DNA of 64,000 nucleotides from the sequence record PQ871103.1; one strand, 5' to 3'. Origin of the DNA: Escherichia phage vB_Eco_ZCEC15. Positions 4,376 to 61,694 of this stretch are shown here, piece after piece (the first letter of the stretch is position 1; each line of letters opens with the position of its first letter). The notes beneath the pieces are model-generated. The model was not told the DNA's origin. It was given only the letters and a program-made list of their open reading frames with translations, and did no database searches. The position numbers and the translations under genes are program-made.

Positions 4376-4452
4376 TCATTTTTTCCATAGGCATCATTAT
4401 ATTTTCCTCACTGGTTAAAGATAAAGTAATTATAACACAATAAATTTAGGCA

Positions 4453-5295: not shown

Positions 5296-5933
5296 TTAAG
5301 TGCCTTACATTTGTCAAAATGGTATCTTGTCATATTTGGCCCACGTCCTTTTAGTCCGCAATGCGGACATATTTTTTCTATCAAATTATGAGGTTTTCCT
5401 TTACGATTTTTAGACATCGTTTCTTTAATTATTTTAGCTTTTTCTGCGCCAAAAATTTCTTCATAAGTTTTACCAGAATTTTCCTTTGCTCGATTTATAA
5501 TTCCATATGCCTGCTCATTTTTACCATACATTGGATTACCTTCGCCTTTCATTCTTTTAGAATGATCAGGACGCTTGATTCCACGAAAGGCATTTCCGCA
5601 CTTATATCTTTCTTCTGGAGATAGTTTTTTACCGTACATTCCATTTAATTTGCCTGGAAAACTTCCTCCCCATGCTTCATTCTTTAAATTATATGAATCC
5701 GGACAATTAGCAGCATCTAAACAAGTTAAAATAATTTCTTCAACCTGTCTAAACATTGGTCCTTCATATAATATTTCTTTATTAAAGGATTTTATTCCAT
5801 ATTTCTTTTTAGCATGTTGCCAAACTACACCCGAACCATCATAATTTGGGTTGTGACCATCATGACTTCCTATATACCACTTTTTAGTTTTAGGATGTTT
5901 ATACTTATAAACATGTGGCACATTTACTTCCAT
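5292..5933 (-). CDS. GIY-YIG homing endonuclease (seg-like), 213 aa, C-terminal zinc finger
   Basis: VYKY...WYIGS GIY-YIG motif, NUMOD3-like G-K-x-S/P-E repeats, C-terminal CPHCG...RYHFDKC. Confidence 0.75.
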   Translation of the reverse strand: MEVNVPHVYKYKHPKTKKWYIGSHDGHNPNYDGSGVVWQHAKKKYGIKSFNKEILYEGPMFRQVEEIILTCLDAANCPDSYNLKNEAWGGSFPGKLNGMYGKKLSPEERYKCGNAFRGIKRPDHSKRMKGEGNPMYGKNEQAYGIINRAKENSGKTYEEIFGAEKAKIIKETMSKNRKGKPHNLIEKICPHCGLKGRGPNMTRYHFDKCKALK

Positions 5934-6664
5934 TTTCCAGTATAATCCTTTTTAGCAATATGAGTTTCACCAGTGTTCCACCAATGGTCAACTAAATAAA
6001 ACTGATTTTCGTACACATGAAGACTTCCAACGTTCCATATAATAGAACCTGCTTTATATTGCCGCGATGGGTCGCCTGCATTCAAATCAGATACTAATTT
6101 ATCTAGTACGTATTTTTGCCATGCATAATCATTACGATAGCCTGCCCAGCAGTCATTGCTTCTCATATTAACAACTGCATTGACTTTCTTGTCACGAATC
6201 AGATACTGTACGGTATTCGTACACATGAAATCTGACATACCATCTTTATTGTAGTCAAACTGCATAGATGGACGAGTATAAATCATGATACCACGTCGAG
6301 AATCAGGATTTTGACCAAGTTCAGCTAAACACATATCATACTGGGCATAGTTATCTTCTGACCAGATGGCCCAACCATAATTCGAGTTAATTTCGCCTTT
6401 AGAAGATGCTACCTGCTGCCAAATCTTCGGTGTTTCACCCGGAATATCTTTAACAAACAAACTTTTAGATTTATACCATTCAAGTTCACGTTGAATGTAT
6501 TCATCATTAAGAGCGCCAAAAATAAACGGTTCATCTGCTACAAATGATGCGCCAATAATTTCAATAGTTTTAACGCCAGTTTTATCAACTACGAAATCTT
6601 TTTCCTTTAATGCAAGCCCCAAATGAAGACGGATTTCTTCAACTGTCATAGAGTCACTAATCAT
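5924..6664 (-). CDS. 42: dCMP hydroxymethylase gp42, 246 aa
   Basis: Sequence and length match T4 gp42. Confidence 0.95.
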   Translation of the reverse strand: MISDSMTVEEIRLHLGLALKEKDFVVDKTGVKTIEIIGASFVADEPFIFGALNDEYIQRELEWYKSKSLFVKDIPGETPKIWQQVASSKGEINSNYGWAIWSEDNYAQYDMCLAELGQNPDSRRGIMIYTRPSMQFDYNKDGMSDFMCTNTVQYLIRDKKVNAVVNMRSNDCWAGYRNDYAWQKYVLDKLVSDLNAGDPSRQYKAGSIIWNVGSLHVYENQFYLVDHWWNTGETHIAKKDYTGKWK

Positions 6665-13748: not shown

Positions 13749-13940
13749 TTAGTCATAATAATCAGTAACAGTCCAAGCTTCATTCCTGTTGGACATTATT
13801 TTCGTATATTCTGATTTAAATGCATTCTTAAGCATAGATTCAGTAACTATATGCTCTTCATTAGAAAAATTATTTCTCAGAATATATCGTTTTATTTCAG
13901 GAATAGTTAATAGATGCTGTCCAGTTGAATATTCTGCCAC
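13749..13940 (-). CDS. hypothetical protein, 63 aa (45.2 position)
   Basis: ORF track; position. Confidence 0.55.
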   Translation of the reverse strand: MAEYSTGQHLLTIPEIKRYILRNNFSNEEHIVTESMLKNAFKSEYTKIMSNRNEAWTVTDYYD

Positions 13941-13950
13941 AGTTCCTCCG

Positions 13951-13958
13951 TATAAATA
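13951..13958 (+). promoter_or_regulatory. late promoter TATAAATA (plus strand) upstream of HNH endonuclease gene
   Basis: Exact TATAAATA about 33 nt upstream of ATG at 13992, with AAGGA SD between. Confidence 0.5.
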
Positions 13959-13991
13959 TGTTTATCACTCGCTGTATCAAAAGGATATGTT

Positions 13992-14708
13992 ATGAATTAT
14001 AAACTAATTTATGAAAAGTTAATCTCTAATGCTAAATCTCGAAAACTTGATTGCTATACTGAATCTCATCACATTATACCACGCTGTTTAAATGGTAGCG
14101 ATGATGCTTCAAACTTAGTAGATTTAACACCAGAAGAGCACTATGTAGCTCATCAACTTTTAGTAAAAATTTATCCTTCTGAACCAAAATTAGTCTATGC
14201 TGCTAACATGATGACAGTTTCTACGAAATACGCTAAACGTAACAATAAAACTTTCGGCTGGATTCGTCGTAAACTCTGGGAAATAGAAAAGAATAAAGAG
14301 TTCTCCCAAGAGACACGAAAGAAAATGTCCGACGCAGTAGCTAATAAAGCAAGACTAACTTGTCCACATTGCGGTAAGTCTGGATTAAGCGGGAATATGA
14401 ATCGATGGCATTTTGATAACTGCCCAAATCATCCCAATCCTAAAGTTAGACCGCCAATGTCTAAAGAACACAGAAATAATATCTCAAACGGACTTAAAGC
14501 AATCGTTCTTGAAGAAACATCCTGCGAATTCTGCGGAATGATAGGCAAGAAATGCGTTATCGCAGCGCATAGAAATTTCTGCAAGAAAAATCCAAATGGA
14601 CGCAAGAAAACTGAAAAGACTGGTACTTGCGTCCATTGTGGTAAAGTTACCACTTTCGGAAATTTATCAAGATGGCATAATGATAATTGTAAATATAAAC
14701 CTAGCTAA
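13992..14708 (+). CDS. HNH homing endonuclease, 238 aa, three C-terminal zinc-finger repeats
   Basis: HNH core ESHHIIPRCLNGSDDASNLVDLTPEEHYVAH; opposite strand to flanking genes; absent from this position in T4 as I recall. Confidence 0.8.
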   Translation: MNYKLIYEKLISNAKSRKLDCYTESHHIIPRCLNGSDDASNLVDLTPEEHYVAHQLLVKIYPSEPKLVYAANMMTVSTKYAKRNNKTFGWIRRKLWEIEKNKEFSQETRKKMSDAVANKARLTCPHCGKSGLSGNMNRWHFDNCPNHPNPKVRPPMSKEHRNNISNGLKAIVLEETSCEFCGMIGKKCVIAAHRNFCKKNPNGRKKTEKTGTCVHCGKVTTFGNLSRWHNDNCKYKPS

Positions 14709-16389
14709 TCTTAGCTAAACTAAATCTACCAACTTTTTCCATTTGAATGTGCTGACCATATTCCTGTGGGTCATGGTCTTTATGCGAAATTATGAAGAAG
14801 TTGGTATCCTTCAAACCATCTAAAATTTTAGCCACATTTTTAATACCTTCAGCATCAAATGCACCGTCATACACTTCATCAAGAAATAAACAACTTATTT
14901 TAACACCTGAAACTTTTTCAGCAATATCACGCCAAGTAAATAGAAGAGCAATATCAATTCGTGCTTTTTCGCCTTGACTGAATGAAGCATAACTAAAATC
15001 TTCGCGACCACGGGATTTAATTGTCTCATTAAATTCTTCATCTAATGTAAACACATAATCCGCTTCCATTATTTTAAGATAATGGTTAATCTGCTTATTA
15101 AATAATGGAATGTACTTTTTAATAATAGCACCTTTAATACCAGAATCTTTGAGCATATCAGTCAAAATTCCTCTGTGGTATTTTTCCATTACCAAATTAG
15201 TTTTTGTCTTAACAATTTTATCAAGTTCTTCTTGAAGCAGTGCTATTTCATCAGCATGGTCAATAAACTCAGAAGATGCTTTTTCTATAGCCGCTTTAAC
15301 CTTTTTAGCTTTATCTACCGTCGTGATTAAAGATTGCTTTTTATTGCGAATATCATTCGCCAACGTCTGCTGGGTTTTAATATTATCTCGGTATTCATCA
15401 ACGAGAACTTTTAAATTATCACGATGCGTTGAAAGCTGTTCAAACGAATGCGTACATTCAGAAACTTTATCTTTAATTTTAGAAACAACTTTATCACCGG
15501 AACTTAACTGTGACAAGCAGGTTGGACATAATCCACCTTCGTGATACATATTAATGACTTTATTATACGAGTCAATTTTTGATTTAATTAAAACTGCTTC
15601 TTGACCGATTTTATTAAATGCATCAGTCGGGTCTTCATCTAAAACAATATTAACTAATCTTTCATTAGCTTTTTCTATTTCCGATTTTAGCGTTCTAGCT
15701 TCTTTTGCCAAATCATCATACATATTTTGCAGACGAGTAAGATTGTCACCCGTTAATTTTTTCTGGCGTTCAACGTTATCATTATATATTTTAATTTGTT
15801 GGATAATACTATCTTTTTTAACGTCAAGCACTTGGTTTTGTGAATTTAATTCACGTATTAGTGCTTTATTAAGCTTATCCATTTCAGCTAATGTTCCTAC
15901 CTCAAGCAGGTCTTCCACAAGCTTTCTTCGCGCAGGGGTCGACAAACCCATGAAAGGGGTATACCCTGCTGTACCAAGGACAACAATCTGCTTGAAACTG
16001 GCATATGACATTCCGATAAGCTGTTCAAATTCTGCTTGGAAATCTTTACTGCTGGCAGATTCATTAAGACGTGTACCGTTAACGGTGATTTCAAAAACGT
16101 TCGGTTTTTGTCCTCTTTTGATATAGTACTTTTTCTCATCATATTCCATCCACAGTTCAACTAAAAGTTCTTTCTTATTTGTGCTGTTTATTAATTGGCC
16201 TTTCTTTACATCACGAAATGGCTTGCCAAAAAGCCCAAATGTGATGGCTTCTAACATAGTAGACTTACCACCGCCATTTCGTCCAGTAATAAGAGTTTTT
16301 TGAACCTTATCTAATTGAATGTCAATAGGATTTCCACCTACTGACATTATATTTTGATACCTAACTCGGTTTAGTTTAAAATTCTTCAC
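14701..16389 (-). CDS. 46: recombination nuclease subunit gp46 (Rad50/SbcC-like), 562 aa
   Basis: Walker A GRNGGGKS, CPTC zinc hook, C-terminal signature/Walker B. Confidence 0.95.
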   Translation of the reverse strand: MKNFKLNRVRYQNIMSVGGNPIDIQLDKVQKTLITGRNGGGKSTMLEAITFGLFGKPFRDVKKGQLINSTNKKELLVELWMEYDEKKYYIKRGQKPNVFEITVNGTRLNESASSKDFQAEFEQLIGMSYASFKQIVVLGTAGYTPFMGLSTPARRKLVEDLLEVGTLAEMDKLNKALIRELNSQNQVLDVKKDSIIQQIKIYNDNVERQKKLTGDNLTRLQNMYDDLAKEARTLKSEIEKANERLVNIVLDEDPTDAFNKIGQEAVLIKSKIDSYNKVINMYHEGGLCPTCLSQLSSGDKVVSKIKDKVSECTHSFEQLSTHRDNLKVLVDEYRDNIKTQQTLANDIRNKKQSLITTVDKAKKVKAAIEKASSEFIDHADEIALLQEELDKIVKTKTNLVMEKYHRGILTDMLKDSGIKGAIIKKYIPLFNKQINHYLKIMEADYVFTLDEEFNETIKSRGREDFSYASFSQGEKARIDIALLFTWRDIAEKVSGVKISCLFLDEVYDGAFDAEGIKNVAKILDGLKDTNFFIISHKDHDPQEYGQHIQMEKVGRFSLAKIS

Positions 16390-17852: not shown

Positions 17853-17962
17853 GGTGTCTTTTCCATCCTAATTTAGCTGCTTTTGAAACCAGTTCTTTAA
17901 TTTTTCCTTTTGTCCATTCAGGACCAGGAGGTTCATGACATAACATTTGCTTAACTCCGTTA

Positions 17963-18454
17963 TTATACCATTTTTTTACCTTTATTATGTGATGAAGCTT
18001 TAAATTTATTTGACCTTCCTTTTACATAACCTTTTGGAATATAAGGCAAAAAGGCAGATTTTCCTGTTAATGGATCATGTGAATGTATATTTCCTTTACA
18101 ATTATGAGAACCATATAATGGATGATTTTGTCCTTTATTATCTCTTCCAAATGAACCTTTTGGAGCAGCATATGACATATTAAAGAATAATGGATTTTTA
18201 ACTGCATCATGCAATCGTTGATAATATAACTCGCATTTAATAGCTTCTTCACGCGTATCAAATTCAGCTAAAATGCATGAATCAAATAAGTGAGGATTAT
18301 CTGAAAGCTCTTTATTATAAATTTTCTTATACTTTTTAGATAAAACTGAACCATGATATCCAGCTAAATGCCTATCTAAAGACGTAGATCCAATATAAAA
18401 AGGAGGAAGTTTATCTCCACTATATATTGTTAAATAAGTTATATATTTTTTCAT
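17963..18454 (-). CDS. GIY-YIG homing endonuclease-like protein, 163 aa
   Basis: YLTIYSG...FYIGST and FDSCILAEFDTREEAIKCELYYQ resemble the I-TevI catalytic core; NUMOD3-like repeats. Confidence 0.75.
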   Translation of the reverse strand: MKKYITYLTIYSGDKLPPFYIGSTSLDRHLAGYHGSVLSKKYKKIYNKELSDNPHLFDSCILAEFDTREEAIKCELYYQRLHDAVKNPLFFNMSYAAPKGSFGRDNKGQNHPLYGSHNCKGNIHSHDPLTGKSAFLPYIPKGYVKGRSNKFKASSHNKGKKMV

Positions 18455-18632: not shown

Positions 18633-19833
18633 ATTTTGTAATAATGTCAAACTGTTCTTTAAAGCAGAAGCTTGAATCTTGATGCTGATACAAAAATTCA
18701 TAAGCTTTTTCGCGTTCACGGTCATAAAGATTTCGGTCAGATGACAGTTCTTTAATACGCTCAAATGTTGATTCCATGTCATTTTCATCAAACCAAACGA
18801 TACCGCTATCATGAGAAATTAACGGAGTATTATCAACACGGAATTTTAAATTTTCGCCAGTAGATTTCCAAAATACTGGAATTGTTCCACACGCACCAAG
18901 CTCGAGATGAGTATATTCTAAAGAACGTTGTAGATATTTTTTATCCAACTTACTCAACTGATAACCAAAACCGGATTTACTCATGCGTTCAAGCATTTCG
19001 CTATTTACATAACGATCAAGAATTTGCGTTGGCAAATTAGGAGCAATTTTAATTTGGTCTACTTGATGAAGACGATAATACTCGTATGGAATTCCTTTTT
19101 CTTTAATAGGAATGAACGCTGGAGAACGTTCCAGACCTTCCATAATAGTACTTAGTCCTGCAGGTTTAAGATGTTTTTCGTGAAAATCAAACATCTGATA
19201 AAAACCTTTCCATGTAGTCGTACGACCAATCCAACGGTTAACATTCATGTTAATTTCAGAAACATCTTTCCAGTAGGTTGACCGAACCTTCGCAATATCC
19301 ATAGGAGGCTGAAAGTTATATACTGTCGGTGCTTCTTCAATATCATCAAACAGAGAAACAGTTTCTGGATACCATTCTTTCATCAGAACTTTATTAAAAT
19401 CACCATTATCAGAATGACTAAAAATAACATCAGCTCGACGAACAGTTTCTTCTAATCCCAAATTTCGACGCAAAGAAAGAGAAGAATGGTCATGTTGATA
19501 AACTACAACACGAACAGAAGGTTTAATGTTATCAATAATTTTTTTATAGTTATTAATAGTGTCTTCTTCAACCGAAGTAGCAGGAACTGAATTGATAATT
19601 AGAATATCACAATCATTTACCAGCTTAAGTGTTTTATCATATTCTTTTGCCAATAAAACCGGAATTGAAAATGATTTATAATCATGCGCGCAATTACGAG
19701 TAAATGATTTATCTTTAGCATAAACCAAAGTTACTTCATGACCATTCTTAATAAACCAATCACGTTGCTCAAGAGAAAATTTAGTTACACCACAACCTTC
19801 AAGACCTCGAGCCATAAAAATACATACTTTCAT
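18631..19833 (-). CDS. a-gt: alpha-glucosyltransferase (a-gt), 400 aa
   Basis: N-terminus and length match T4 alpha-gt. Confidence 0.95.
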   Translation of the reverse strand: MKVCIFMARGLEGCGVTKFSLEQRDWFIKNGHEVTLVYAKDKSFTRNCAHDYKSFSIPVLLAKEYDKTLKLVNDCDILIINSVPATSVEEDTINNYKKIIDNIKPSVRVVVYQHDHSSLSLRRNLGLEETVRRADVIFSHSDNGDFNKVLMKEWYPETVSLFDDIEEAPTVYNFQPPMDIAKVRSTYWKDVSEINMNVNRWIGRTTTWKGFYQMFDFHEKHLKPAGLSTIMEGLERSPAFIPIKEKGIPYEYYRLHQVDQIKIAPNLPTQILDRYVNSEMLERMSKSGFGYQLSKLDKKYLQRSLEYTHLELGACGTIPVFWKSTGENLKFRVDNTPLISHDSGIVWFDENDMESTFERIKELSSDRNLYDREREKAYEFLYQHQDSSFCFKEQFDIITK

Positions 19834-19883
19834 TTAATATCCTCTTTGTTTTGGTTTATTTTACCAAAAATTTATAAAGCAAT

Positions 19884-23874: not shown

Positions 23875-24345
23875 TTAATCATGTTTCCACACCCCATCGG
23901 TATTTGACCAAAGTCGCTGATTATCTGATCCTCGCCACAGCTTTTTGGTCGGAAGATTTTTCTCATACTTCCCATCAATAATAACATCAACATATTTAAG
24001 CATTTCTAGTTGTTTAATATCCTCAAACTTATATCCTGTCCACAACCAAATGCTTTTATTTGGATAAAGATTTTTTACTGTTTGAACAATGCAATGAATA
24101 ACATCTCGGTTATCAGGATAGAGAGGGTCTCCTCCAGTTATAGTCAATCCTTCTATATAATCATTATTCAAACATTCAATTAATTGTTCCAGTGTTTCAC
24201 CAGTGAATGGAACGCCATTTCTAGCATTCCATGTTGATTTATTATAACACCCTTCGCATTTATGCAAACAACCTGTAACGAAAAGAACGACCCTGCATCC
24301 AGGGCCATTCACAAAATCACAAGGATAAAATCTATCATAATTCAT
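23875..24345 (-). CDS. nrdG: anaerobic RNR activating enzyme NrdG (radical SAM), 156 aa
   Basis: Cys cluster CLHKCEGC; adjacent to nrdD. Confidence 0.9.
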   Translation of the reverse strand: MNYDRFYPCDFVNGPGCRVVLFVTGCLHKCEGCYNKSTWNARNGVPFTGETLEQLIECLNNDYIEGLTITGGDPLYPDNRDVIHCIVQTVKNLYPNKSIWLWTGYKFEDIKQLEMLKYVDVIIDGKYEKNLPTKKLWRGSDNQRLWSNTDGVWKHD

Positions 24346-26159
24346 TGGTGTTTAACCCTATGCATGATTTCTTTATTTTTTCCAAGATTAAATCCGCGTT
24401 CATTCGGATTTCCCAAATAGCCACAAGTTCTTCTTATTGTGTTCATCTTTTTAGGATCAGTTTCTCCACAAATAGAACAAACAAACCCGTTTTCAGTAGG
24501 AGTCATTTCATGGGTACTTCCGCATGTAAAACATTTATCTACTGGCATATTAACACCAAAATAATCTAAATGTTGTGCAGCATAATCCCATACAGCCTCA
24601 AGACCTTTTAGGTTATTTTTCATATCAGGAAGTTCAACATAAGAAATGTGACCACCTGTCGCAATGAAATGATATGGGGCTTCGCGAGAAATCTTTTCAA
24701 ACGGAGTAATATTTTCTTCTACTGAAACATGGAAACTATTAGTGTACCAGCCTTTATCAGTAACATCCTTTACACTTCCATATTTCTCAGTATCAAGTTT
24801 ACAGAAGCGATAGCACAGGTTTTCAGCAGGAGTAGAATACAAGCTAAAAGCAAAACCGGTTCTTTCAGTCCACTGCTTAAGACGAGCATTCATTTTAGTT
24901 AAAATTTCCTGTCCAATATCACGACCGACAAGAATATTCAATTCGTGAATACCAATGTATCCTAAGGACACTGAACTTCTACCGTTTTTAAATAACTCAA
25001 TTATGTCGTCATCAGGTTTAAGACGAACCCCAAATGCACCTTCTTGGTAAAGAATAGGAGCAACAGTCGCTTTAACTCCTTTTAAGGAACTAATTCTACA
25101 CATCAAAGCTTCAAAACACAAATCCATTCGTTCATTGAACAATTCAGCAAATTTCTGTTCATTGAACTGTGTTCCAATATAAGAATCTAACGCAATGCGA
25201 GGAAGATTCAGTGTTACAACGCCAAGATTATTACGTCCATCAAGAATTTCATTACCAGTCGAATCTTTCCATACGCTCAAGAAACTACGGCAACCCATTG
25301 GAGAAACAGGAATAGATGAGCCGGTGATAACTTTATTGTTCTTAGCTGAAATAATATCAGGATACATTCTTTTGCTTGCACACTCTAAAGCAAGCTGCTT
25401 AATATCATAGTTCGGATCGTCCTTATAAAGATTAACACCTTCTTCAACGAACATAACAAGTTTAGGGAAAATAGGAGTTATCCCATCACGGCCAAGGCCT
25501 TTAATACGATTTTTCAGAATTGCTTTCTGAATCATTCGTTCAGTCCAGTCAGTTCCCGTACCAAATGTAATTGTTACAAAAGGCGTTTGTCCGTTTGAAC
25601 TAAAGAGAGTATTTACTTCATATTCATAAGCTTGGAATGCATCGTATACGTCTTTTTCTGTTTTAGATTGGGCATAATTCAATGCATCGGCGATTTGCCA
25701 TTTTTCTGCATCCTCAATATGTTTTGCATAGGTGCGTTTAACATATGGAGAAAGTACTTTATCTACATTCGCAAAAGTCGTTCCGCCATATTGATGAGAA
25801 GCAACCTGTGCAGTAATTTGTGCCATAATTGCAGTAGCAACGCCGATTGATTTAGGAGTTTCAATCTGCGCATTACCGAGCTTAAATCCGTTCTCAAGCA
25901 TTCCTTTTAAATCTACTAAACAGCAATTAGTAAATGGAAGAGCAGGGGAATAATCAATATCGTGGAAATGGATAATTCCGCTTTCATGCGCTTTCATAAT
26001 AAAAGACGGGACCATATTTTTGGCAATGTGTTTAGACACAATACCAGCCATAAGGTCCCGTTGAGTTGGAAAAACACGAGAATCTTTATTAGCATTCTCG
26101 TTCAAAAGGTCTTTATTAGTTTTATGAATCAATCCTTCAATTTCTTTTTCAATCGTCAT
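24342..26159 (-). CDS. nrdD: anaerobic ribonucleoside-triphosphate reductase NrdD, 605 aa, uninterrupted
   Basis: C-terminal glycyl-radical motif RTCGYLG and zinc ribbon; single continuous ORF. Confidence 0.95.
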   Translation of the reverse strand: MTIEKEIEGLIHKTNKDLLNENANKDSRVFPTQRDLMAGIVSKHIAKNMVPSFIMKAHESGIIHFHDIDYSPALPFTNCCLVDLKGMLENGFKLGNAQIETPKSIGVATAIMAQITAQVASHQYGGTTFANVDKVLSPYVKRTYAKHIEDAEKWQIADALNYAQSKTEKDVYDAFQAYEYEVNTLFSSNGQTPFVTITFGTGTDWTERMIQKAILKNRIKGLGRDGITPIFPKLVMFVEEGVNLYKDDPNYDIKQLALECASKRMYPDIISAKNNKVITGSSIPVSPMGCRSFLSVWKDSTGNEILDGRNNLGVVTLNLPRIALDSYIGTQFNEQKFAELFNERMDLCFEALMCRISSLKGVKATVAPILYQEGAFGVRLKPDDDIIELFKNGRSSVSLGYIGIHELNILVGRDIGQEILTKMNARLKQWTERTGFAFSLYSTPAENLCYRFCKLDTEKYGSVKDVTDKGWYTNSFHVSVEENITPFEKISREAPYHFIATGGHISYVELPDMKNNLKGLEAVWDYAAQHLDYFGVNMPVDKCFTCGSTHEMTPTENGFVCSICGETDPKKMNTIRRTCGYLGNPNERGFNLGKNKEIMHRVKHQ

Positions 26160-36859: not shown

Positions 36860-37341
36860 TCAGCCTTATATTCAATAACAGGACATACTTTAGCTTTATG
36901 CGCTTTTAAAAATTCGACGATAATAGATTTCTTGGGTTGAATAGGCTCAAGTCCATTTTTGATTCGTTCTTCGTTTTGTACAATGAGCTCAATTTCTTTA
37001 TTGAGCTTTCGGTCGTTATATTTGTCTAACAACCAGGAAGGACCAATTACCGCCCCGACAGCAATAAGAACCATGACCGATAATGCTAAAATGCCTATAC
37101 CAATTGAAGCTGGAATTAATGTCCATAGACTACTAAAGACAAAGAATTTAATTAAAATTTCTTGGCCAATTATTGCAGCACCTGTTAAAGTTGCAAATCC
37201 AACAATTGAAACCGCTAATACCGGGAGAAACGTTTTCCAAAAATAAGCACATAACGTTTTTGGACGATTCCATGTGCTGTTAAATGCCGAGTAAATTTTA
37301 AAGTGCCAAGAGTTTTCATTAATAATCATAATTATAATCAT
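36856..37341 (-). CDS. membrane protein, 161 aa
   Basis: Three to four hydrophobic helices. Confidence 0.6.
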   Translation of the reverse strand: MIIIMIINENSWHFKIYSAFNSTWNRPKTLCAYFWKTFLPVLAVSIVGFATLTGAAIIGQEILIKFFVFSSLWTLIPASIGIGILALSVMVLIAVGAVIGPSWLLDKYNDRKLNKEIELIVQNEERIKNGLEPIQPKKSIIVEFLKAHKAKVCPVIEYKAE

Positions 37342-37859
37342 CCTTTCATTGAAGGTGTAACAGTTGTTAAATACTTAATCATAGCTTCAGCTTCTGATTT
37401 TGATAATGAAATTTCTCCATTGTTTTGACGAATAGAAATAAAATCCGGATGACGGTCACCACCAGCTTTTAAAACACACATATAAGTATCAGTTTCATCT
37501 TCAATATCTGAAATGATTGAAGCAGTTCCACATGAATGTGGTTTTTGATAAATCAATACAGCTTTTCTTCCACCGTTTGACTGTTCATAAACTTTTAACA
37601 CATCAAACAAATCGCTTCTTTTATCAATAGCTAAGATGTTGTTTTCATCTTCAATATTAAATCCTTCGGATACTTCATAAAGTGTCACCCATAAATCACC
37701 AATATCAATAACAGCGTTCACTTTTCCATGACTTTCAAGAGCATTACAAATTTTCTTAATTTCATCATAACTCATTTTAATAATATCATCTCCTTGAATA
37801 AGGAAGATGTCATTTTTAAATTCAACACGAATTAAACCACTTCCACTTGAAATAAACAT
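37338..37859 (-). CDS. hypothetical protein, 173 aa (tandem paralogue A)
   Basis: C-terminus SKSEAEAMIKYLTTVTP resembles next ORF. Confidence 0.55.
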   Translation of the reverse strand: MFISSGSGLIRVEFKNDIFLIQGDDIIKMSYDEIKKICNALESHGKVNAVIDIGDLWVTLYEVSEGFNIEDENNILAIDKRSDLFDVLKVYEQSNGGRKAVLIYQKPHSCGTASIISDIEDETDTYMCVLKAGGDRHPDFISIRQNNGEISLSKSEAEAMIKYLTTVTPSMKG

Positions 37860-37865
37860 ATTTCC

Positions 37866-38420
37866 TCACTTTGAAATCATAGTTGGAATGACAGAATCAA
37901 GATAAGTCTTTAGCGCAATAGCTTCGTCTTTGGTAAATGTGACAATATGTGCTCGAGAATCATCAATTTGGCGAACAAGTACGACATCACCATCTTCATA
38001 AGAAGTTTTGACATCCAAAGTCGTAGTATAGTTTGCAGCTACTGGATTAATAATGCTAGCACTGCGATCTTTAGCCCATTGAAGTTTAGCCTTTTCGGAT
38101 GTTTCGGCTGATTCAGATTCCAAGAATTCTTTCACCTTAACAACGAATGTTGCCCAATTATCGATAGAAAGACACGCAAGTTCAGTTTCAATATTACCAC
38201 CGTGAGTGCCACGATAAAAACGAACTTGGAGGTCGCCTGTGATATTAGTTACACTGGTAACTCCTGAGGGAGTATAAGATAAAATCGCAGCTAGTTCCAT
38301 AGGAAGAATAGTAATACTATCGTCTTCCTGTGTCAGAACGTATGCATTACCACGTTTTTCGATAACTAGATCACCGAACAAATCAGTTGTTTCAATTACA
38401 GCTTTCATATTATTTACCAA
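37866..38420 (-). CDS. hypothetical protein, 184 aa (tandem paralogue B)
   Basis: C-terminus TKDEAIALKTYLDSVIP resembles previous ORF. Confidence 0.55.
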   Translation of the reverse strand: MVNNMKAVIETTDLFGDLVIEKRGNAYVLTQEDDSITILPMELAAILSYTPSGVTSVTNITGDLQVRFYRGTHGGNIETELACLSIDNWATFVVKVKEFLESESAETSEKAKLQWAKDRSASIINPVAANYTTTLDVKTSYEDGDVVLVRQIDDSRAHIVTFTKDEAIALKTYLDSVIPTMISK

Positions 38421-38604
38421 TTAAAGTTTCAATATAAGAATCAAGATGTACTTTAGCTTCTTCCATAAGAGTTTTGTATTTAATCTTAATCTTATTAGCA
38501 TGTCTGGAGAAAGCTGATTCTTCATCAATAACTGTTGATGCATGAACAGCTTTACTATAAATCTCAATTAATTCTCTTAACTCAAAAGCTTGTTCATTTG
38601 TCAT
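38410..38604 (-). CDS. hypothetical protein, 64 aa
   Basis: ORF track. Confidence 0.45.
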   Translation of the reverse strand: MTNEQAFELRELIEIYSKAVHASTVIDEESAFSRHANKIKIKYKTLMEEAKVHLDSYIETLIGK

Positions 38605-40559: not shown

Positions 40560-41141
40560 CTAACCGAGCTTTTTAGTTAATTCATTCCAATGTTTTCTAC
40601 ACAAAGAAACATAAATTTCATCACCAATACAGATTTGATTACCTTCTTTAACTGGTGTTCCATCTTCCATTAATCGAGCTGTCATAATAGCTTTTTTACC
40701 ACAATGACAAACTGCCTTTAGTTCAATAAGTTTATCTGCAATCGCCAAAAGTTCTTTAGAACCTTCAAATAATTTTCCAGCGAAATCAGTCCTTAGTCCA
40801 TAAGCCATAACAGGAACATTATATGTATCAACAATTCGGCTTAATTGATGCACCTGTTCAGTTTTTAAAAACTGGGCTTCATCTACAAATACACAATGAA
40901 TATCTTTTTGTGCTTCAGCCCATTTATAGAACTCAAAAATATCCATATCATCCGTAATAATATTCGCTTCCTGCTTAATTCCAATGCGAGAAACGACTTC
41001 ACAGACAGAATCACGAGTATCAATAGCAGGCTTAAGAACTAATACACCCATTCCGCGTTCTTTATAATTATGTGCAGCAGTCAAAAGAGAAGCAGATTTT
41101 CCAGCATTCATTGCTGCGTAAGTAAAAATTAAACTCGCCAT
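40560..41141 (-). CDS. tk: thymidine kinase, 193 aa
   Basis: P-loop AMNAGKS and zinc motif; matches T4 Tk. Confidence 0.95.
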   Translation of the reverse strand: MASLIFTYAAMNAGKSASLLTAAHNYKERGMGVLVLKPAIDTRDSVCEVVSRIGIKQEANIITDDMDIFEFYKWAEAQKDIHCVFVDEAQFLKTEQVHQLSRIVDTYNVPVMAYGLRTDFAGKLFEGSKELLAIADKLIELKAVCHCGKKAIMTARLMEDGTPVKEGNQICIGDEIYVSLCRKHWNELTKKLG

Positions 41142-41150
41142 ATCACCTTC

Positions 41151-41336
41151 TTAAAGCGTATTCACATAAGCTATTAATTCATTTTCTTTCTTATCAAACC
41201 GATCAGCAAATTCTTCCTGCTGTTCGGGAGATAGCGGGCCATATTCATCATAAAAGGTGTTTGCTTCTGTATGCTCATCTAGAAGTTCATGGATAAGCTC
41301 AAACAATTTATCTTTTTGTTCTTTACTCAGACTCAT
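41151..41336 (-). CDS. hypothetical protein, 61 aa (tk.1 position)
   Basis: ORF track. Confidence 0.5.
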   Translation of the reverse strand: MSLSKEQKDKLFELIHELLDEHTEANTFYDEYGPLSPEQQEEFADRFDKKENELIAYVNTL

Positions 41337-41506
41337 ATATTAATTTCCAGGAGTTTTAAAATAATTCGCTTTTGCTTAAATATTTCCATAGTTAAATGAC
41401 CAGTATCTTTTTGACCGATTCCAATGGCAAAACCTTTATTGACAGCGAGTTCAATTAAATTATCAAGCTCACATAACACTTCATATTGTAACTCAAAACT
41501 ATTCAT
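41333..41506 (-). CDS. small protein, about 57 aa (own translation, MNSFELQYEV...)
   Basis: ATGA start/stop overlaps with both neighbours; not in ORF track; coordinates approximate. Confidence 0.35.
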   Translation of the reverse strand: MNSFELQYEVLCELDNLIELAVNKGFAIGIGQKDTGHLTMEIFKQKRIILKLLEINI

Positions 41507-41730
41507 TTTGGTTTACCTTCTTTAACGAAATCGGGATAAGGATAAAATCCTGAATAAAATCCTTCACCTTTATGATTGATGCATCCTTTATTAGAACAAT
41601 AGCACCAATAATCGAAATCACAAGCCATTTCATCATTACATAAAGCAAAAACAACTGGCCATTCACACTTTTCGCAGTGGGCATTTTTAAGAATACTTGT
41701 TTGGCTCATAACCATGTAACCTTTAAACAA
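41503..41730 (-). CDS. Cys-rich small protein, 75 aa
   Basis: Multiple Cys/His (CEKCEW, CDFDYWCYCSNKGC). Confidence 0.5.
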   Translation of the reverse strand: MFKGYMVMSQTSILKNAHCEKCEWPVVFALCNDEMACDFDYWCYCSNKGCINHKGEGFYSGFYPYPDFVKEGKPK

Positions 41731-41918
41731 TATTCTTCTACGTGTTGTTTACGACCTTTCTTATCAATAAAGGTATATTCAACGAATGTTCCAATATAGT
41801 CTTTATCTACACCATGTGGACTATTAATTGGGCATTTAGTACGGCAAATGCGTTCCCATTGACGAATAATTTCCACTTTGTTTTTAGGATCAAACGGATG
41901 CGGGTAATGTACTTTCAT
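41706..41918 (-). CDS. hypothetical protein, 70 aa
   Basis: ORF track; GGTGGA SD upstream. Confidence 0.5.
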   Translation of the reverse strand: MKVHYPHPFDPKNKVEIIRQWERICRTKCPINSPHGVDKDYIGTFVEYTFIDKKGRKQHVEEYCLKVTWL

Positions 41919-42369
41919 AATCCACCACTATTAAATCAATATCAGGAGTAAACATGTCGATTAATTTAGAAACCTTATCCCAATCGCCGCCAGCAATACC
42001 GCAACCTATACGTGGAATGTAAATTACTGGTTTAAACAAAAGGGTTTCTGCCTGTAGATTTAATTCTATCATGCAGTTTACTAAAGCACCATAATCAAGA
42101 TTAGGACCCGGTTCGTATTGTGTATACAGGTTATAGCATATACCAAATCCCGTAGGACTATGTTTAAAAACAATAGACATATCGCCTAATTTATCACGAG
42201 AACCGTACTCGGTAGTGGTTTTATCTATTTCTAAAATTTTGGGATAGGCTCTTGCTAATTGACCCGCTACGCCAGAGCCCATTGTGTGGAAGCAATTGCA
42301 CCCGTGCGCAATAATATTACCTTGAAGAAATAGGGCGACAATATCGCCCTTGATATATTTTACAATCAT
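41890..42369 (-). CDS. macro-domain protein, 159 aa (tk.4 position)
   Basis: Motifs IAHGCNCF and GCGIAGG resemble macro-domain ADP-ribose-binding loops. Confidence 0.6.
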   Translation of the reverse strand: MIVKYIKGDIVALFLQGNIIAHGCNCFHTMGSGVAGQLARAYPKILEIDKTTTEYGSRDKLGDMSIVFKHSPTGFGICYNLYTQYEPGPNLDYGALVNCMIELNLQAETLLFKPVIYIPRIGCGIAGGDWDKVSKLIDMFTPDIDLIVVDYESTLPASV

Positions 42370-42713
42370 CTAGTACTCAATCCTCGATTATAAGAATCTA
42401 CTAAACGGTCAACCATTGAATGACAAGCGGCTTTATCTTTCTCCTCCGCAACTGAACATTCTAAGGTATTCCACTTTTTAGCATATCGTTTTAACAATGT
42501 ATCATTTTTGTATCTGCTTGATTTATCTCTTTCTCCGTCTTTATATGCATATATTAATTTCTGCGCAAATTCAGCTTGGCATGCTTTATTTTTCCCACAA
42601 TAATCCGCGGCAGTACGGTTTACATACTCTCTAATTTCAGTATATGATGTATCTGCTAACGCAGAAGCAGAAAATGAAATTAATCCTATACATAAAACCA
42701 AAATTTTAGTCAT
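42366..42713 (-). CDS. vs: Vs valyl-tRNA synthetase modifier, 115 aa, signal peptide
   Basis: Length and position as T4 vs. Confidence 0.7.
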   Translation of the reverse strand: MTKILVLCIGLISFSASALADTSYTEIREYVNRTAADYCGKNKACQAEFAQKLIYAYKDGERDKSSRYKNDTLLKRYAKKWNTLECSVAEEKDKAACHSMVDRLVDSYNRGLSTR

Positions 42714-43251
42714 TTACTATTTCCAAAAGTTTATTATTTTTAAGGTAATTAGCCTTTTCTAGGACTTCAGAAGCATATTTAGAACCTGCTTTAACATTCC
42801 ATCCCGAATTATAAGAGGATATCGCCTTTCTTATATCGCCCTTATGTATATTTAACCAATAAGAAAGTTCAATGTACGCCCAGGAAGCTGAATTGGACCG
42901 TTTATTCAACATTCTTTTTATTTCAGCATCGGTCATATTATAACCAAGTTCCTTAACTCTTGCTCGCATAGTAGGCAAATAATTTTGGAACATTCCATAG
43001 GCATGATGCTTTGGTTTAGATTTTAAATTAACTCCGGCAGAGCTTTCTTGCCATAAAATAGCAGCCATTATATGACCCAATCCGCTCTTGTGGATATTTT
43101 TGTGTGTTTTATATTTTCCATCCTTAGAAAATTGTTCCCCGAATTGATACGCGTAACGCATGTTATCGAGTTGGACATTACTGAAAGTATGCTCGGAGCT
43201 ATGCGCCATCATTGAAATGGCCAATAGACCAGCGAGTAGTGCTTTTCTCAT
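42706..43251 (-). CDS. secreted lytic transglycosylase-like protein, 181 aa (vs.1 position)
   Basis: Signal peptide; SLT-like motifs QESS, YGMFQ, SYNSGWN. Confidence 0.6.
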   Translation of the reverse strand: MRKALLAGLLAISMMAHSSEHTFSNVQLDNMRYAYQFGEQFSKDGKYKTHKNIHKSGLGHIMAAILWQESSAGVNLKSKPKHHAYGMFQNYLPTMRARVKELGYNMTDAEIKRMLNKRSNSASWAYIELSYWLNIHKGDIRKAISSYNSGWNVKAGSKYASEVLEKANYLKNNKLLEIVND

Positions 43252-43258
43252 GCTTACC

Positions 43259-43720
43259 TCATTGAGTTTTAATTACTGCTTTAGAAGCCTTTCCTGGTAA
43301 ACGACGACTGTTGATAATTGCCATCCTGCATTGAAGCGACGGGTCTTTGAACTTCGCATTAGGTTTACAAACTGTAAATCCAAGCCAAAGATTTCCATCT
43401 GTGATTTCTAAACGTCCAGGGCGATATTCAACCCCATCAATAAAATCCTCGTCAATGTCAGGACGCGGAGGCATACTCAGGAATTCATTAACTTCTAAAA
43501 CATGGTCTTTTATTTTGTGGAATAATTCAAAAACATATGTCTCATCAATCTCCCGTTGAATTGCACGATCAAGAAGATGCTGAGAATATTTTAGATGAAA
43601 CGATGAGACCCCTGCTGCTTTTGATGCCTCACGAATCTCATTGTTAATTTGACGAAACTCCGACTCAAAGTGACGACGAAGCTTATTTCGACGGATAAAA
43701 ACTTCTGTGTTGATAGTCAT
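43259..43720 (-). CDS. regB: RegB endoribonuclease, 153 aa
   Basis: Length and position as T4 regB. Confidence 0.85.
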   Translation of the reverse strand: MTINTEVFIRRNKLRRHFESEFRQINNEIREASKAAGVSSFHLKYSQHLLDRAIQREIDETYVFELFHKIKDHVLEVNEFLSMPPRPDIDEDFIDGVEYRPGRLEITDGNLWLGFTVCKPNAKFKDPSLQCRMAIINSRRLPGKASKAVIKTQ

Positions 43721-45920: not shown

Positions 45921-46337
45921 TTAAATGTAAATATTTTTGCCGTAATACTTATACCAGTGTGGCTTCATTAAAATTTTTTCATCGAGTCGTTGTTGACTCA
46001 ACTTAATAGCTGATTTGCATGGATTATAATCATTTTTCCATTCTACTGGAATATCGCTGATGTCAGGAACTTCAGTATCTTTTATACTGAACCCGCGTTT
46101 TAAGCATTCCGTTATAATGTCCGATTGACGCTTTCGCAAAAATTCTAACTTATCATAAAAGAACGTAACATGACCAGAACCTAAAATAAACTCGGAAGAT
46201 ATTTTAAAATCTTTAACCCGCTTACCATTTGCTACATGTTTACGAACTATACCAAAAACACGCGGCAATTCACGGTATTCTGCGATTAAATGTTGATCAG
46301 CAAGTTCAGATACTAAAGTCAAATTAATACGAGTCAT
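45921..46337 (-). CDS. denV: endonuclease V DenV (pyrimidine-dimer glycosylase), 138 aa
   Basis: N-terminus [17 protein letters not shown] and length match T4 DenV with substitutions. Confidence 0.9.
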
Positions 46338-46351
46338 TTTATCCCTCCAAG

Positions 46352-46390
46352 CAATTGTGAATATACTATCACAATTCTAGGAGAAAGTAA
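46352..46390 (-). promoter_or_regulatory. early promoter with dyad ATTGTGA/TCACAAT flanking the -10 region, upstream of denV
   Basis: GTTTAC -35, inverted repeat around -10, GGAGGG SD before denV ATG. Confidence 0.45.
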
Positions 46391-46396
46391 ACAACT

Positions 46397-46927
<531 letters not shown>

Positions 46928-47383
46928 TTAAAAGAGGCTGTTCATTATTCGGTAAAGTGAAGGGCCCATCACATATTGCCACTGAGTACGAGGAATAAGA
47001 GCAAAAGCATCCATCTCTGGAATCATAACGCCATCTTTATTTTCAAAATAAGACTCGCAATGGCAATTTCTAAACATCTCATGCTCTACTGGAATCGTAT
47101 AATAAAATAACTGTAAGTCTTTATTACTAGAATATTTAAATACACCTAAGTCTTCTAGAAGGTCTGGATTATAATTGCTAAAGCCAGTCTCTTCTAAGCA
47201 TTCTCTTCGTGCTGCATCTAGTGCGCTTAAATCAGAACTTTCTACACGCCCCTTTGGAATATCCCAGCGATGTGCCATCATTCCATGTTTACGAGAACCA
47301 GTAACTCGTCCCATAAATAAATCTTTATCTTCTGTCATAAAGATAATACCAGCTGATAGTGTTTTCATTTTAATTTCCTGCAT
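46928..47383 (-). CDS. nudE: NudE Nudix hydrolase, 151 aa
   Basis: Nudix box GRVESSDLSALDAARRECLEETGF. Confidence 0.9.
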   Translation of the reverse strand: MQEIKMKTLSAGIIFMTEDKDLFMGRVTGSRKHGMMAHRWDIPKGRVESSDLSALDAARRECLEETGFSNYNPDLLEDLGVFKYSSNKDLQLFYYTIPVEHEMFRNCHCESYFENKDGVMIPEMDAFALIPRTQWQYVMGPSLYRIMNSLF

Positions 47384-53054: not shown

Positions 53055-53579
53055 TTAAAGCAAATTAAACATTTTAACGGTCGGCAAAACAATTTCTTCT
53101 TCTATATAAGAGTATTTAACACTCTCAACTACACGCAAAAAATCATAATCATAATACTCAGAAGCATTACCTAAAATATTAATAAGTCCTTCAAGCACCT
53201 TATTACTATTCACAAAGAATAAGTCAAATACACGTTCTTCATCTTCTTCAGATTTATTACCAAGATCAACTTCTATGCGAAAGACCTTTTTAATGAATTC
53301 TGGATAAAGCTGATCTGAGAACAGTCCTTCAACCAAGTATTCATAAATAAAAAGAGATTGCTCGCTGAACAAACCATTACCACAATAGCGCTCAATTTTA
53401 GTACTAGAATATCTGCTTTTAAACTTCTTTAAAAGATACTGAAATTGTAAGATTTCATGCTCTTCTACGCCAAACAGTGTTTTGGTTTTATAGTTGTCAC
53501 CATCATTTTCCCAGGTAGTGACATCAATTACGTAACCCTGCGGAATTGTAGTACCCAAACAAATATTCATTTTCACCAC
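53055..53579 (-). CDS. hypothetical protein, 174 aa
   Basis: ORF track. Confidence 0.55.
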   Translation of the reverse strand: MVKMNICLGTTIPQGYVIDVTTWENDGDNYKTKTLFGVEEHEILQFQYLLKKFKSRYSSTKIERYCGNGLFSEQSLFIYEYLVEGLFSDQLYPEFIKKVFRIEVDLGNKSEEDEERVFDLFFVNSNKVLEGLINILGNASEYYDYDFLRVVESVKYSYIEEEIVLPTVKMFNLL

Positions 53580-53863
53580 GCTGCATTAATGTAAGTATAT
53601 TTAATACATTCAAGACCCAAAGGATTCTTGAAAATATCATATTCAAGAGGACCTTTTTCTGTTTCGATAAAGAAATCAAAATTTACTGTATTAAATTTAC
53701 GGTCTTCCTTCACTAATTTAACTTGTGAAGATGAACGGTCAATGTAAACCTTTTCAACTTCAAAATATGTTAAAATGCCATAATCATCAATCAAAGCTTT
53801 AGCCGCGTCTTGATCATATTTATATCCATTTTCAATGGATGATACTTTCGCATAAAGAATCAT
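53573..53863 (-). CDS. hypothetical protein, 96 aa
   Basis: ORF track. Confidence 0.55.
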   Translation of the reverse strand: MILYAKVSSIENGYKYDQDAAKALIDDYGILTYFEVEKVYIDRSSSQVKLVKEDRKFNTVNFDFFIETEKGPLEYDIFKNPLGLECIKYTYINAAW

Positions 53864-54464: not shown

Positions 54465-54495
54465 AGTAAATAGGGTAATAGTATCACTACCCTAT
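54465..54495 (-). promoter_or_regulatory. promoter-early stem-loop (PeSL-like) module: dyad AGGGTA/TACCCT around -10, GTTTAC -35
   Basis: Inverted repeat flanking atagtatcac core; compare 54763 and 55093. Confidence 0.5.
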
Positions 54496-54507
54496 CTAAA
54501 AGTAAAC

Positions 54508-54741
54508 TTATTTTTTACGAAAAATTGATTTATTTTCTGCTGCCCATTTTTCAATAACTGCAGCAGGACCAGTAACAACAATTTTATCACCGTAATCTTC
54601 TGCGGCGAGTTGACCGAAATTATCTAATGCATCACGAAGAACTCCATGAGGCATTTCACCCATTTTATCTTTCTTGCCAGTGTAAATAAACTCAACTTTT
54701 ACATCAGCAGTTTCAGCAATAAATTCTTGGTAAGTTTTCAT
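54508..54741 (-). CDS. internal-protein-like protein (about 77 aa from MKTYQEFIAE)
   Basis: N-terminus MKTYQEFIAE resembles the T4 internal-protein capsid-targeting sequence. Confidence 0.6.
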   Translation of the reverse strand: MKTYQEFIAETADVKVEFIYTGKKDKMGEMPHGVLRDALDNFGQLAAEDYGDKIVVTGPAAVIEKWAAENKSIFRKK

Positions 54742-54762
54742 TTTGATTTCCATTTGGTTTTG

Positions 54763-54795
54763 TTTTGATAGGGTAATAGTATCACAACTAAAACC
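54763..54795 (-). promoter_or_regulatory. PeSL-like module: dyad ATAGGGT/ACCCTAT around -10
   Basis: As above with different arm sequence. Confidence 0.5.
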
Positions 54796-54817
54796 CTATG
54801 TAAACAACTTTGTGAAA

Positions 54818-55075
54818 TTATTTTAAATCTTCTAATCGTTTCTTCATCTTAGAACCATTTTTAGCAATTTCTCCTGCATCGGAGCATAATGCTAAAAGTG
54901 CTTTAACTTTAGTTTGGTCTCCTTTAAAAGATGAAGGATCGACCGCAGCAGCAAGTTCTTTAATACGAGAGAAAAGACGCTCAGCTTCAGCTAAAGCCAT
55001 TCCAAGCTTTACTTCCATACCGTGGGAAGATTCAGTGATAGTAGTTTTTGTAGCAAACTCTTTGAAAGTTTTCAT
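54818..55075 (-). CDS. internal-protein-like protein, 85 aa, N-terminal MKTFKEFATK
   Basis: CTS-like N-terminus; flanked by PeSL-like modules. Confidence 0.55.
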   Translation of the reverse strand: MKTFKEFATKTTITESSHGMEVKLGMALAEAERLFSRIKELAAAVDPSSFKGDQTKVKALLALCSDAGEIAKNGSKMKKRLEDLK

Positions 55076-60905: not shown

Positions 60906-61400
60906 ATGGAAGGTTCTTCTATCGACGTCACCTTTACCGCTCAATTAGAAACAGGTGAAACGTTAGTATCTATAAATATAACTAGTTACGAAGAAACTCC
61001 TGGGGTTTTAGTAGAAGAAAATCGTTTATATGGAACGTATGAATCTGTGTTTGGATTTGGAAATGATGCGTTGAAATATCGTTTAGATAATGAATTTAAA
61101 ACTGCTGCTTCATGGGAAGACCTTCCAACTGATTCTAATACTCAGTTATATTTATGGAAAGCTCCTCAGAACCTCCAGAAGACATTCACTTACGAAGTAA
61201 CATTAATATATGACTACCAAGAACAAAGTGAATCTGGAGGTTCTGGTAGTAATTCTAGGTCATCTTCTGATACCACTGAACCAACTGATCCTCCAGCTCC
61301 AATAAGAAAAACTCTTGTTAAAAATTACACAAAAACTATAGTTGGAAATTGGAGTCGTTGGGCTAATAAATTGAGAAGCTACGTGTATGAGAGGCAATAA
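60906..61400 (+). CDS. gp5.1-position protein (about 164 aa from ATG at 60906 with GGAG SD)
   Basis: Track ORF 60843..61400 overlaps gp5; internal start preferred. Confidence 0.6.
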   Translation: MEGSSIDVTFTAQLETGETLVSINITSYEETPGVLVEENRLYGTYESVFGFGNDALKYRLDNEFKTAASWEDLPTDSNTQLYLWKAPQNLQKTFTYEVTLIYDYQEQSESGGSGSNSRSSSDTTEPTDPPAPIRKTLVKNYTKTIVGNWSRWANKLRSYVYERQ

Positions 61401-61694
61401 ATGTCAGGATTAAGCTATGATAAGTGTGTTACTGCTGGCCATGAAGCATGGCCTCCAACAGTTGTGAATGCTACACAAAGTAAAGTATTCACTGGAGGAA
61501 TTGCTGTTCTCGTAGCAGGCGATCCAATTACAGAACATACAGAAATTAAAAAGCCATATGAAACACATGGCGGAGTGGCACAACCTAGAACTTCTAAGGT
61601 ATATGTCACTGGAAAGAAAGCTGTTCAAATGGCTGATCCAATATCATGCGGTGATACTGTGGCTCAGGCATCATCTAAAGTATTCATTAAATAG
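61401..61694 (+). CDS. 5.4: gp5.4 PAAR-repeat spike-tip protein, 97 aa
   Basis: Length and position; Gly/Val-rich PAAR-like sequence. Confidence 0.8.

Follow-up and report, generated by a model that had tools for sequence, protein, structure and literature searches.

The stretch of DNA analysed here (the window) comprises 64,000 nucleotides of Escherichia phage vB_Eco_ZCEC15 (PQ871103.1), is collinear throughout with 18.9-83.4 kb of T4, and is part of a Tequatrovirus genome. A preliminary description had placed a 159-aa protein with macro-domain-like loops at 41890-42369, in the interval between tk and vs. Both the coordinates and the interval are exact: the protein is encoded by an ATG-started open reading frame on the minus strand that lies between vs and tk.3, with tk farther downstream. 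Beyond that description, the reading frame is a named gene, tk.4, in an allele that has strongly diverged from that of T4. The features of the locus are as follows.

43259..43720, minus strand: regB, upstream of tk.4
42706..43251, minus strand: vs.1, upstream of tk.4
42366..42713, minus strand: vs, adjoining tk.4 upstream
42366..42369, minus strand: ATGA overlap of the vs stop (TGA) and the tk.4 start (ATG), from the ORF coordinates and the DNA
41890..42369, minus strand: tk.4 (adfM-type) coding sequence, ATG-started, 159 codons, encoding a 159-aa single-domain macrodomain protein (ORF listing)
41890..41918, minus strand: 29 nt shared by the 3' end of tk.4 and the start of tk.3 (4 nt in T4)
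41706..41918, minus strand: tk.3, adjoining tk.4 downstream
40560..41141, minus strand: tk, downstream, beyond tk.3 and three small ORFs

All neighbours of tk.4 are on its own strand, in the order regB, vs.1, vs, tk.4, tk.3, three small ORFs and tk. The gene is probably translationally coupled to vs, judging from the ATGA overlap, and a GAGGA sequence is found at 42381..42385, 11 nt upstream of the start. No convincing promoter was detected directly upstream of tk.4, the 10 promoter-like matches in the region falling below the shuffle mean of 14.1. A search of the whole window revealed no second macro ORF, and there is no DarT or other ADP-ribosyltransferase (ART) gene beside tk.4, where the neighbours are vs, vs.1, regB, tk.3, the small ORFs and tk. 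Codons 7-13 of tk.4 (42332..42350) can form a GC-rich hairpin with a perfect 8-bp stem (AGGGCGATATTGTCGCCCT), behind which comes a U-rich run; this element is identical in T4, was flagged as terminator-like by a scan, and matches a region under which one GenBank record places a "terminator". The terminator reading was rejected when the 101-nt context was found to fold no better than shuffled sequences (z -0.09).

The 480 bp of tk.4 are 100% identical in Shigella phage vB_SsoM_113, where the gene is annotated as tk.4, and megablast matched them in 557 phage records, nearly all of them Tequatrovirus. Other matching records carry the labels "macro domain protein", "phosphatase" or "Poa1p-like family protein", and the T4 RefSeq label reads "phosphatase; contains A1pp phosphatase motif".

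The window ORF is the positional orthologue of T4 tk.4. The two proteins (T4 Tk.4 is NP_049723) align end to end by BLASTP without gaps (E 1e-70) at about 57-58% identity, the order vs - tk.4 - tk.3 is common to both genomes, and window Tk.4 falls in phrog_335 (E 1.2e-71), the same PHROG as T4 Tk.4. The window protein extends four residues farther at its C-terminus (159 vs 155 aa). The flanking proteins are much closer to those of T4 (Tk 99.0%, Vs 99.1%, Vs.1 99.4%, RegB 99.3% and Tk.3 91% identical), and at the DNA level the divergence has sharp limits:

41855..42330, strand not applicable: cassette divergent from T4, with 44-80% DNA identity per 50-nt segment against 90-100% in the flanks

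Identity to T4 returns to 98% over the first ~13 codons of tk.4 and on through vs. Because the drop in identity is confined between near-identical flanks, the body of window tk.4 is a replaced cassette. Proteins at least 90% identical to window Tk.4 occur in 312 phage records, and proteins at least 90% identical to T4 Tk.4 in 224, T2 included. Tk.4 homologues were found in 2859 of 50,697 phage records overall, the more distant ones in phages of many hosts. The adjoining tk.1/tk.2 interval (41142..41704) is also replaced relative to T4; its small ORFs are labelled RB32ORF110c/111c in a 100%-matching phage, and its tk.2-like protein is only 54% identical to that of T4. Mosaicism makes a hot spot of the entire tk-vs interval.

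The window departs from T4 at several other places. In the slot of T4 gene 61.2 (199..555, minus strand) there is only a 118-aa ORF, as compared to the 208-aa T4 protein; its identity to T4 gp61.2 is 35%, over the C-terminal half of that protein, and it belongs to phrog_4122 rather than phrog_3781. T4 gp61.2 is AdfA, a binder that counters DarT1 (PMC10286901), and the window phage is therefore unlike T4 at a second locus directed against DarT. The denV gene (45921..46337) is directly followed by the lysozyme gene e (46397..46891), and ipII and ipIII, which lie between these two genes in T4, are absent from the gap at 46338..46396. The window contains no counterpart of the T4 homing-endonuclease genes mobB, mobC and segC or of the I-TevII intron of nrdD; examples of the sites of missing mobile elements are 19824..19849, 24325..24345, 25621..25624 and 61397..61402. 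Segments replaced or inserted relative to T4 are located at 4364..5931 (the segA/beta-gt region), 13935..14720, 17853..18447, 36861..38600, 53075..53597 and 54488..55040 (around ipI). Finally, nudE (46928..47383, minus strand), 4.5 kb from tk.4, is described in the T4 record as a Nudix hydrolase active on ADP-ribose. This is the product that a Tk.4-type hydrolase would release, but a functional link between the two genes is pure speculation.

The assignment of Tk.4 as a macrodomain, which the preliminary description had offered from its loops, is borne out by profile searches, structure prediction and fold comparison. The Pfam Macro profile (PF01661) is matched at 32 bits (E 1.3e-7), above its gathering score of 22, and is covered from position 2 to 117 (116 of its 118 positions). 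With phmmer, the PDB sequences matched are those of BT1257 (2AFC/2FG1), Poa1p (6LF*), SCO6735 (5E3B), the Mycobacterium tuberculosis (Mtb) DarG macrodomain (5M3I) and TARG1. A profile of 83 homologues retrieves BT1257, TARG1, SCO6735, Poa1p and DarG from the PDB at E 1e-18 to 1e-11, and coronavirus and alphavirus macrodomains far more weakly (E about 7e-3); in bits, this family profile ranks BT1257, TARG1 and SCO6735 (62-71) above the DarGs (34-49). The only defence or annotation models matched by window Tk.4 are those for DarG: the NCBIfam model, whose cut-off is 250 bits, is matched at 27.7 bits (over positions 2-142 of its 338), and the PADLOC model is matched over positions 3-144 of 329.

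Structure prediction agrees with the profiles. AlphaFold run from the single sequence reached a pLDDT of 34, and the AF2 model built with an MSA was used instead (pLDDT 94.1, pTM 0.89, with alternating strands and helices). The predicted fold is a three-layer alpha/beta/alpha sandwich with a mixed six-stranded sheet, as is characteristic of macrodomains, and its best Foldseek matches are TARG1, BT1257, Poa1p, DarG and SCO6735. The two glycine-rich loops that in macrodomains line the pocket for the ADP-ribose diphosphate are present, with G31/G33 and G122/G124 conserved in 8/8 aligned ALC1-like proteins and invariant in the family. The resemblance to macrodomains is far beyond chance. Because its neighbours by profile, predicted structure and Foldseek are members of the ALC1-like (TARG1/DarG/SCO6735) class, clearly ahead of the MacroD, viral and PARG types, window Tk.4 is a macrodomain of that class. 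An ADP-ribose (ADPr) hydrolase role, also raised at the outset, is accordingly a prediction of the profile, structure-prediction and fold searches alike.

The loops quoted in the preliminary description read directly from the DNA, and together with the residue at the catalytic position they define the active site:

42253..42312, minus strand: IAHGCNCFHTMGSGVAGQLA, residues 20-39, substrate-binding loop region, with invariant H22, G23, N25, C26, G33 and A35
42118..42120, minus strand: Gln84 codon (CAA); the equivalent residue is the catalytic Lys in TARG1 (K84) and DarG (K80) and the essential Gln85 in SCO6735
41980..42006, minus strand: GCGIAGGDW, residues 122-130, phosphate-binding loop in the context PRIGCGIAGGDW, with invariant P119, G122, G124 and W130

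The alignment of 83 sequences, which reaches down to 38% identity, has 14 invariant positions: H22, G23, N25, C26, G33, A35, D49, N80, Y82, Q84, P119, G122, G124 and W130. The phosphate loop of the window protein, PRIGCGIAGGDW, is near-identical to those of SCO6735 (PRIGCGLAGGTW) and BT1257 (PRIGCGLAGGKW). That of T4 Tk.4 is PRIGAGIGKGNW, with GAGIGKGNW in place of GCGIAGGDW.

The identity of residue 84 sets Tk.4 apart from much of its class. In the alignment of the family profile with PDB sequences, window NLYTQ stands opposite TARG1 YLITK, which puts Q84 at the catalytic K84 position, and the position of TARG1 D125 is A126. A direct alignment to SCO6735 sets NLYTQ opposite NMIGQ and equates Q84 with Q85, H22 with H24 and N25 with N27. 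An eight-sequence MAFFT alignment has Gln at this position in window Tk.4, T4 Tk.4, BT1257 and SCO6735, and Lys in TARG1, Mtb DarG, Taq DarG and PhiKZ gp104; it also opens a six-column gap in both the window and T4 proteins opposite the HGIYKDSKGLP/HGMKTGSKGAP loop. The register of these comparisons rests on the profile, MAFFT and SCO6735 alignments, as phmmer misplaces NLYTQ relative to BT1257. A chimeric query (the window N-terminus joined to the SCO6735 loop) served only to obtain the SCO6735 sequence and the N-terminal register, and the real protein was then re-aligned. N25 aligns with N22 of TaqDarG, one of the residues mutated in PMC5179494. H22 and Thr29 align with His23 and Ser30 of Poa1p, the residues mutated in structure entries 6LFS and 6LFT, but both also occur in the DNA-active SCO6735 type and so do not tell the two activities apart.

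Published work shows what these residues do in relatives of Tk.4. The K80A change in DarG abolishes both activity and antitoxin function (PMC5179494). SCO6735 is efficient in stripping ADPr from thymidine that DarT has modified, and it relieves the toxicity of DarT; with Q85A or Q85E it is dead on DNA and protein substrates both. The mechanism proposed for it is water-mediated, with the water positioned by the Val25 carbonyl and Gln85 (PMC9411070). Among phage proteins, PhiKZ gp104, a macrodomain of another lineage, de-ADP-ribosylates DarT2-modified DNA in vitro (PMC13309987).

DarTG systems stop phages through ADP-ribosylation of phage DNA, and the link between tk.4 and these systems comes from recent T4 genetics. 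In a HIDEN-SEQ screen on E. coli that expressed DarTG2, depletion was significant for one T4 gene only, tk.4, and T4 with a clean deletion of this gene became sensitive to DarTG2; on plain K-12 the phage could do without it, and DarTG2 was the only one of the screened defences with which it scored (bioRxiv 10.1101/2025.11.20.689424). The same authors renamed the gene adfM, noted that the AlphaFold model of its product resembles the Mtb DarG macrodomain, and wrote that enzymatic removal of ADPr from DNA "seems likely" (bioRxiv 10.1101/2025.11.20.689424). Johannesman et al. had found that T2 and T4 without adfN stay resistant to DarTG2, and T4 delta-adfA delta-adfN fully so, and had predicted a further factor (PMC11825919). 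T4 Tk.4/AdfM fills the gap left by that study. Reversal of an ADP-ribosylation-based host defence, which the preliminary description had suggested, has thus been found genetically for the T4 orthologue; this DarTG2 requirement was demonstrated by others, and for the T4 allele only.

Taking these results together, it is likely that window Tk.4 is an orphan antitoxin that hydrolyses the ADPr-thymidine made by DarT2 on single-stranded phage DNA, in a reaction dependent on Gln84. The protein would be made from the leftward vs-tk transcription unit, probably coupled to translation of vs. Host DarT2 would ADP-ribosylate thymidines in single-stranded phage DNA, leading to a block of replication. Tk.4 would then bind the ADPr between the glycine-rich loops at residues 31-33 and 122-128 and hydrolyse the bond that joins thymidine to ribose, so that ADP-ribose is set free and the base is regenerated, and would act in this way as an orphan antitoxin against DarTG2. 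The chemistry would be SCO6735-like and not DarG-like, with the invariant Gln84 in place of a nucleophilic Lys, and Gln84 together with H22, G23 and N25 could position the substrate and water. The enzymatic reaction, its substrate, the Gln-based mechanism and the retention of function in the 57%-identical window allele are inferred.

Several properties bear on the strength of this model. That the pocket and Q84 are strictly invariant, in phages with many different hosts, speaks for catalysis. Counting against the model, the T4 genetics come from an allele that is only 57-58% identical and has a different phosphate loop, and Tk.4 has neither the catalytic Lys of DarG nor the longer loop of SCO6735 with K89/K93. 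H22 and T29 would also fit an ADP-ribose-1''-phosphate phosphatase. Tk.4 is moreover acidic overall (pI 5.0), as compared to a pI of 9.6 for the aligned 143-residue stretch of SCO6735; however, a low pI does not speak against DNA as the substrate, since PhiKZ gp104, which acts on DNA, is just as acidic.

The last of the residue-level objections leads to the first of the alternatives, namely that Tk.4 is an ADP-ribose-1''-phosphate phosphatase or an O-acetyl-ADP-ribose deacetylase with no role on DNA. Its sources are the A1pp label of T4 RefSeq and the "Poa1p-like family protein" label of other records, the alignment of Poa1p H23/S30 with window H22/T29, and the argument of Aravind's group that soluble derivatives of ADPr may be preferred by the macro domains of phages (PMC9503650). 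A metabolic enzyme of this kind leaves the DarTG2-specific conditional essentiality of T4 tk.4 unexplained. Furthermore, we know of no source of Appr>p or Appr1p during T4 infection, because tRNA repair by T4 Pnkp and Rnl yields an ordinary phosphodiester and leaves no 2'-phosphate, and both points count against this reading, which we regard as improbable.

We give similarly little credence to a role on proteins, in which Tk.4 would remove mono-ADPr and thereby tune modification by Alt, ModA and ModB or reverse a host ART defence directed at proteins. Its close structural relatives TARG1 and SCO6735 do hydrolyse Glu/Asp-linked ADPr on proteins (PMC9411070, PMC10789625), and T-even phages carry three ARTs (PMC8120803). 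However, the targets of Alt and ModA are arginines (PMC8120803), and Arg-linked ADPr is a substrate of ARH/DraG enzymes that human macrodomains do not remove (PMC10789625). This chemistry also weighs against the suggestion in the preliminary description that the protein might regulate the phage's own ADP-ribosyltransferases (PMC8120803, PMC10789625), and such regulation of the Arg-specific ARTs by Tk.4 is unlikely. A protein substrate is likewise hard to reconcile with a T4 gene that is dispensable on plain K-12 and scores only with DarTG2 among the defences screened, and no ART gene adjoins tk.4 in the window.

A third alternative accepts DarT2 as the target but makes hydrolysis dispensable: Tk.4 would neutralise DarT2 chiefly by binding, either to the toxin or to modified DNA, as a kind of antitoxin mimic. 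The catalytically dead Q85A form of SCO6735 retains its inhibition of DarT in vitro, and more so than dead DarG or TARG1 (PMC9411070); AdfA and AdfB work through DarT binding (PMC11825919); and diversification of alleles is typical of binding interfaces. On the other hand, the TaqDarG macrodomain alone with K80A fails to inhibit DarT (PMC5179494), the whole ADPr pocket and Q84 are strictly invariant across phages of many hosts, and Tk.4 is devoid of a DarG-like C-terminal DarT-binding domain, so that we find this reading quite improbable. That Tk.4 reverses ADP-ribosylation of RNA rather than DNA (for example that made by CmdT-type mRNA ARTs or through ModB RNAylation) is scarcely credible even though mRNA-targeting ART defences act on T-even phages (PMC11618068) and TARG1-class enzymes act on nucleic-acid ADPr generally (PMC9411070, PMC10789625), for no genetic link has been reported and CmdTAC is described as robust against T-even phages, which carry tk.4 homologues that are therefore no effective counter to it.

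Removal of ADPr from DarT2-modified DNA thus being the preferred function, the two alleles raise a further question of specificity. It is unlikely, though worth stating, that the window-type and T4-type alleles are functionally non-equivalent and that the Tk.4 family represents a third mechanistic type of DNA de-ADP-ribosylase, having the Gln of SCO6735 together with the short loop of DarG and TARG1. If so, the cassette swap and the changed phosphate loop could reflect an arms race, and the alleles might differ in the DarT2 variants or other nucleic-acid ARTs that they neutralise, or in how they evade a sensor or inhibitor of AdfM in the host. In this sense the allele divergence provides a natural experiment in specificity.

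The tk.4 gene is an annotated and named T-even gene, and its counter-defence role has already been published for the T4 allele. The additions made here are the allele divergence, the Gln-type short-loop active site and the non-equivalence of two lineages called "AdfM"; these refine the picture and do not constitute a new kind of system. T-even phages have layered countermeasures against DarTG, with AdfA and the NADAR enzyme AdfN directed at DarT1 and Tk.4/AdfM at DarT2. The AdfM-type identity explains a long-standing "phosphatase" or "hypothetical" label in hundreds of genomes of therapeutic-candidate phages and helps to predict host range on strains that bear DarTG2, and the residue-level comparison singles out Q84, N25 and G124 for mutation.

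Among known macrodomains, the closest to window Tk.4 is T4 Tk.4/AdfM, which occupies the same slot, is of the same length class and PHROG, and shares the invariant H, N, Q, GxG and W; it differs in about 57-58% identity, the GAGIGKGNW loop, a C-terminus that is four residues shorter and an overlap with tk.3 of only 4 nt. The other phage "AdfM", gp104 of the chimallivirus PhiKZ (PMC13309987), is also a single phage macrodomain that counters DarTG2, and was given the same name independently. It is of the Lys type with an FPTK motif, its match to Mtb DarG has an E of 9e-25, and only 23 residues of it match window Tk.4 by BLASTP; the protein undergoes import into the phage nucleus. The T-even and PhiKZ "AdfM" proteins are different lineages, and T4-like and PhiKZ-like "AdfM" should not be lumped as one family.

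Human TARG1/OARD1 (4J5S), a eukaryotic protein and DNA de-ADP-ribosylase, is the top Foldseek match (TM 0.74-0.84) and a full-length profile match (E 1e-16), but its catalytic dyad K84/D125 corresponds to Q84/A126 in window Tk.4. Yeast Poa1p (6LFQ) is about 20 residues longer and only weakly alignable in its C-terminal half, and the substrate known for it is a small molecule that arises in the splicing of tRNA. DarG (5M31, 5M3E, 5M3I, 7OMU) has the catalytic Lys in an FPTK(K/R)HW motif (TaqDarG K80) where window Tk.4 has Gln84. It carries a C-terminal DarT-binding domain that is missing from the 159-aa phage protein, which consists of the macro part only, and it is operonic with DarT, whereas window tk.4 is not beside any DarT gene.

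The stand-alone ALC1-like proteins SCO6735 of Streptomyces coelicolor (5E3B) and BT1257 of Bacteroides (2FG1/2AFC) have, like window Tk.4, Gln at the Lys position, the His and Asn of the substrate loop and a PRIGCGxAGGxW loop. Both are only about 27% identical to phage Tk.4, are chromosomal and not phage-encoded, and are basic, whereas the phage Tk.4 proteins are acidic (pI 5.0). Their "mobile loop", which is 5-6 residues longer than in DarG and TARG1, carries K89 and K93/94, defines their subclass and aids DNA binding in SCO6735, is missing in phage Tk.4, and K34 of SCO6735 is S32 in the window protein. A chromosomal homologue with ~40% identity, from Pelagimonas phthalicica (6001..6459 of the chromosomal stretch examined), stands alone among housekeeping genes and so resembles SCO6735 in its orphan status; its neighbours are genes for a redoxin, an M23 peptidase and a halogenase, and no DarT-like gene was found near it. 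Window Tk.4 would thus do the work of a DarG macrodomain but does not belong to the DarG family, and is described more accurately as an "orphan SCO6735-like macrodomain with a short loop".
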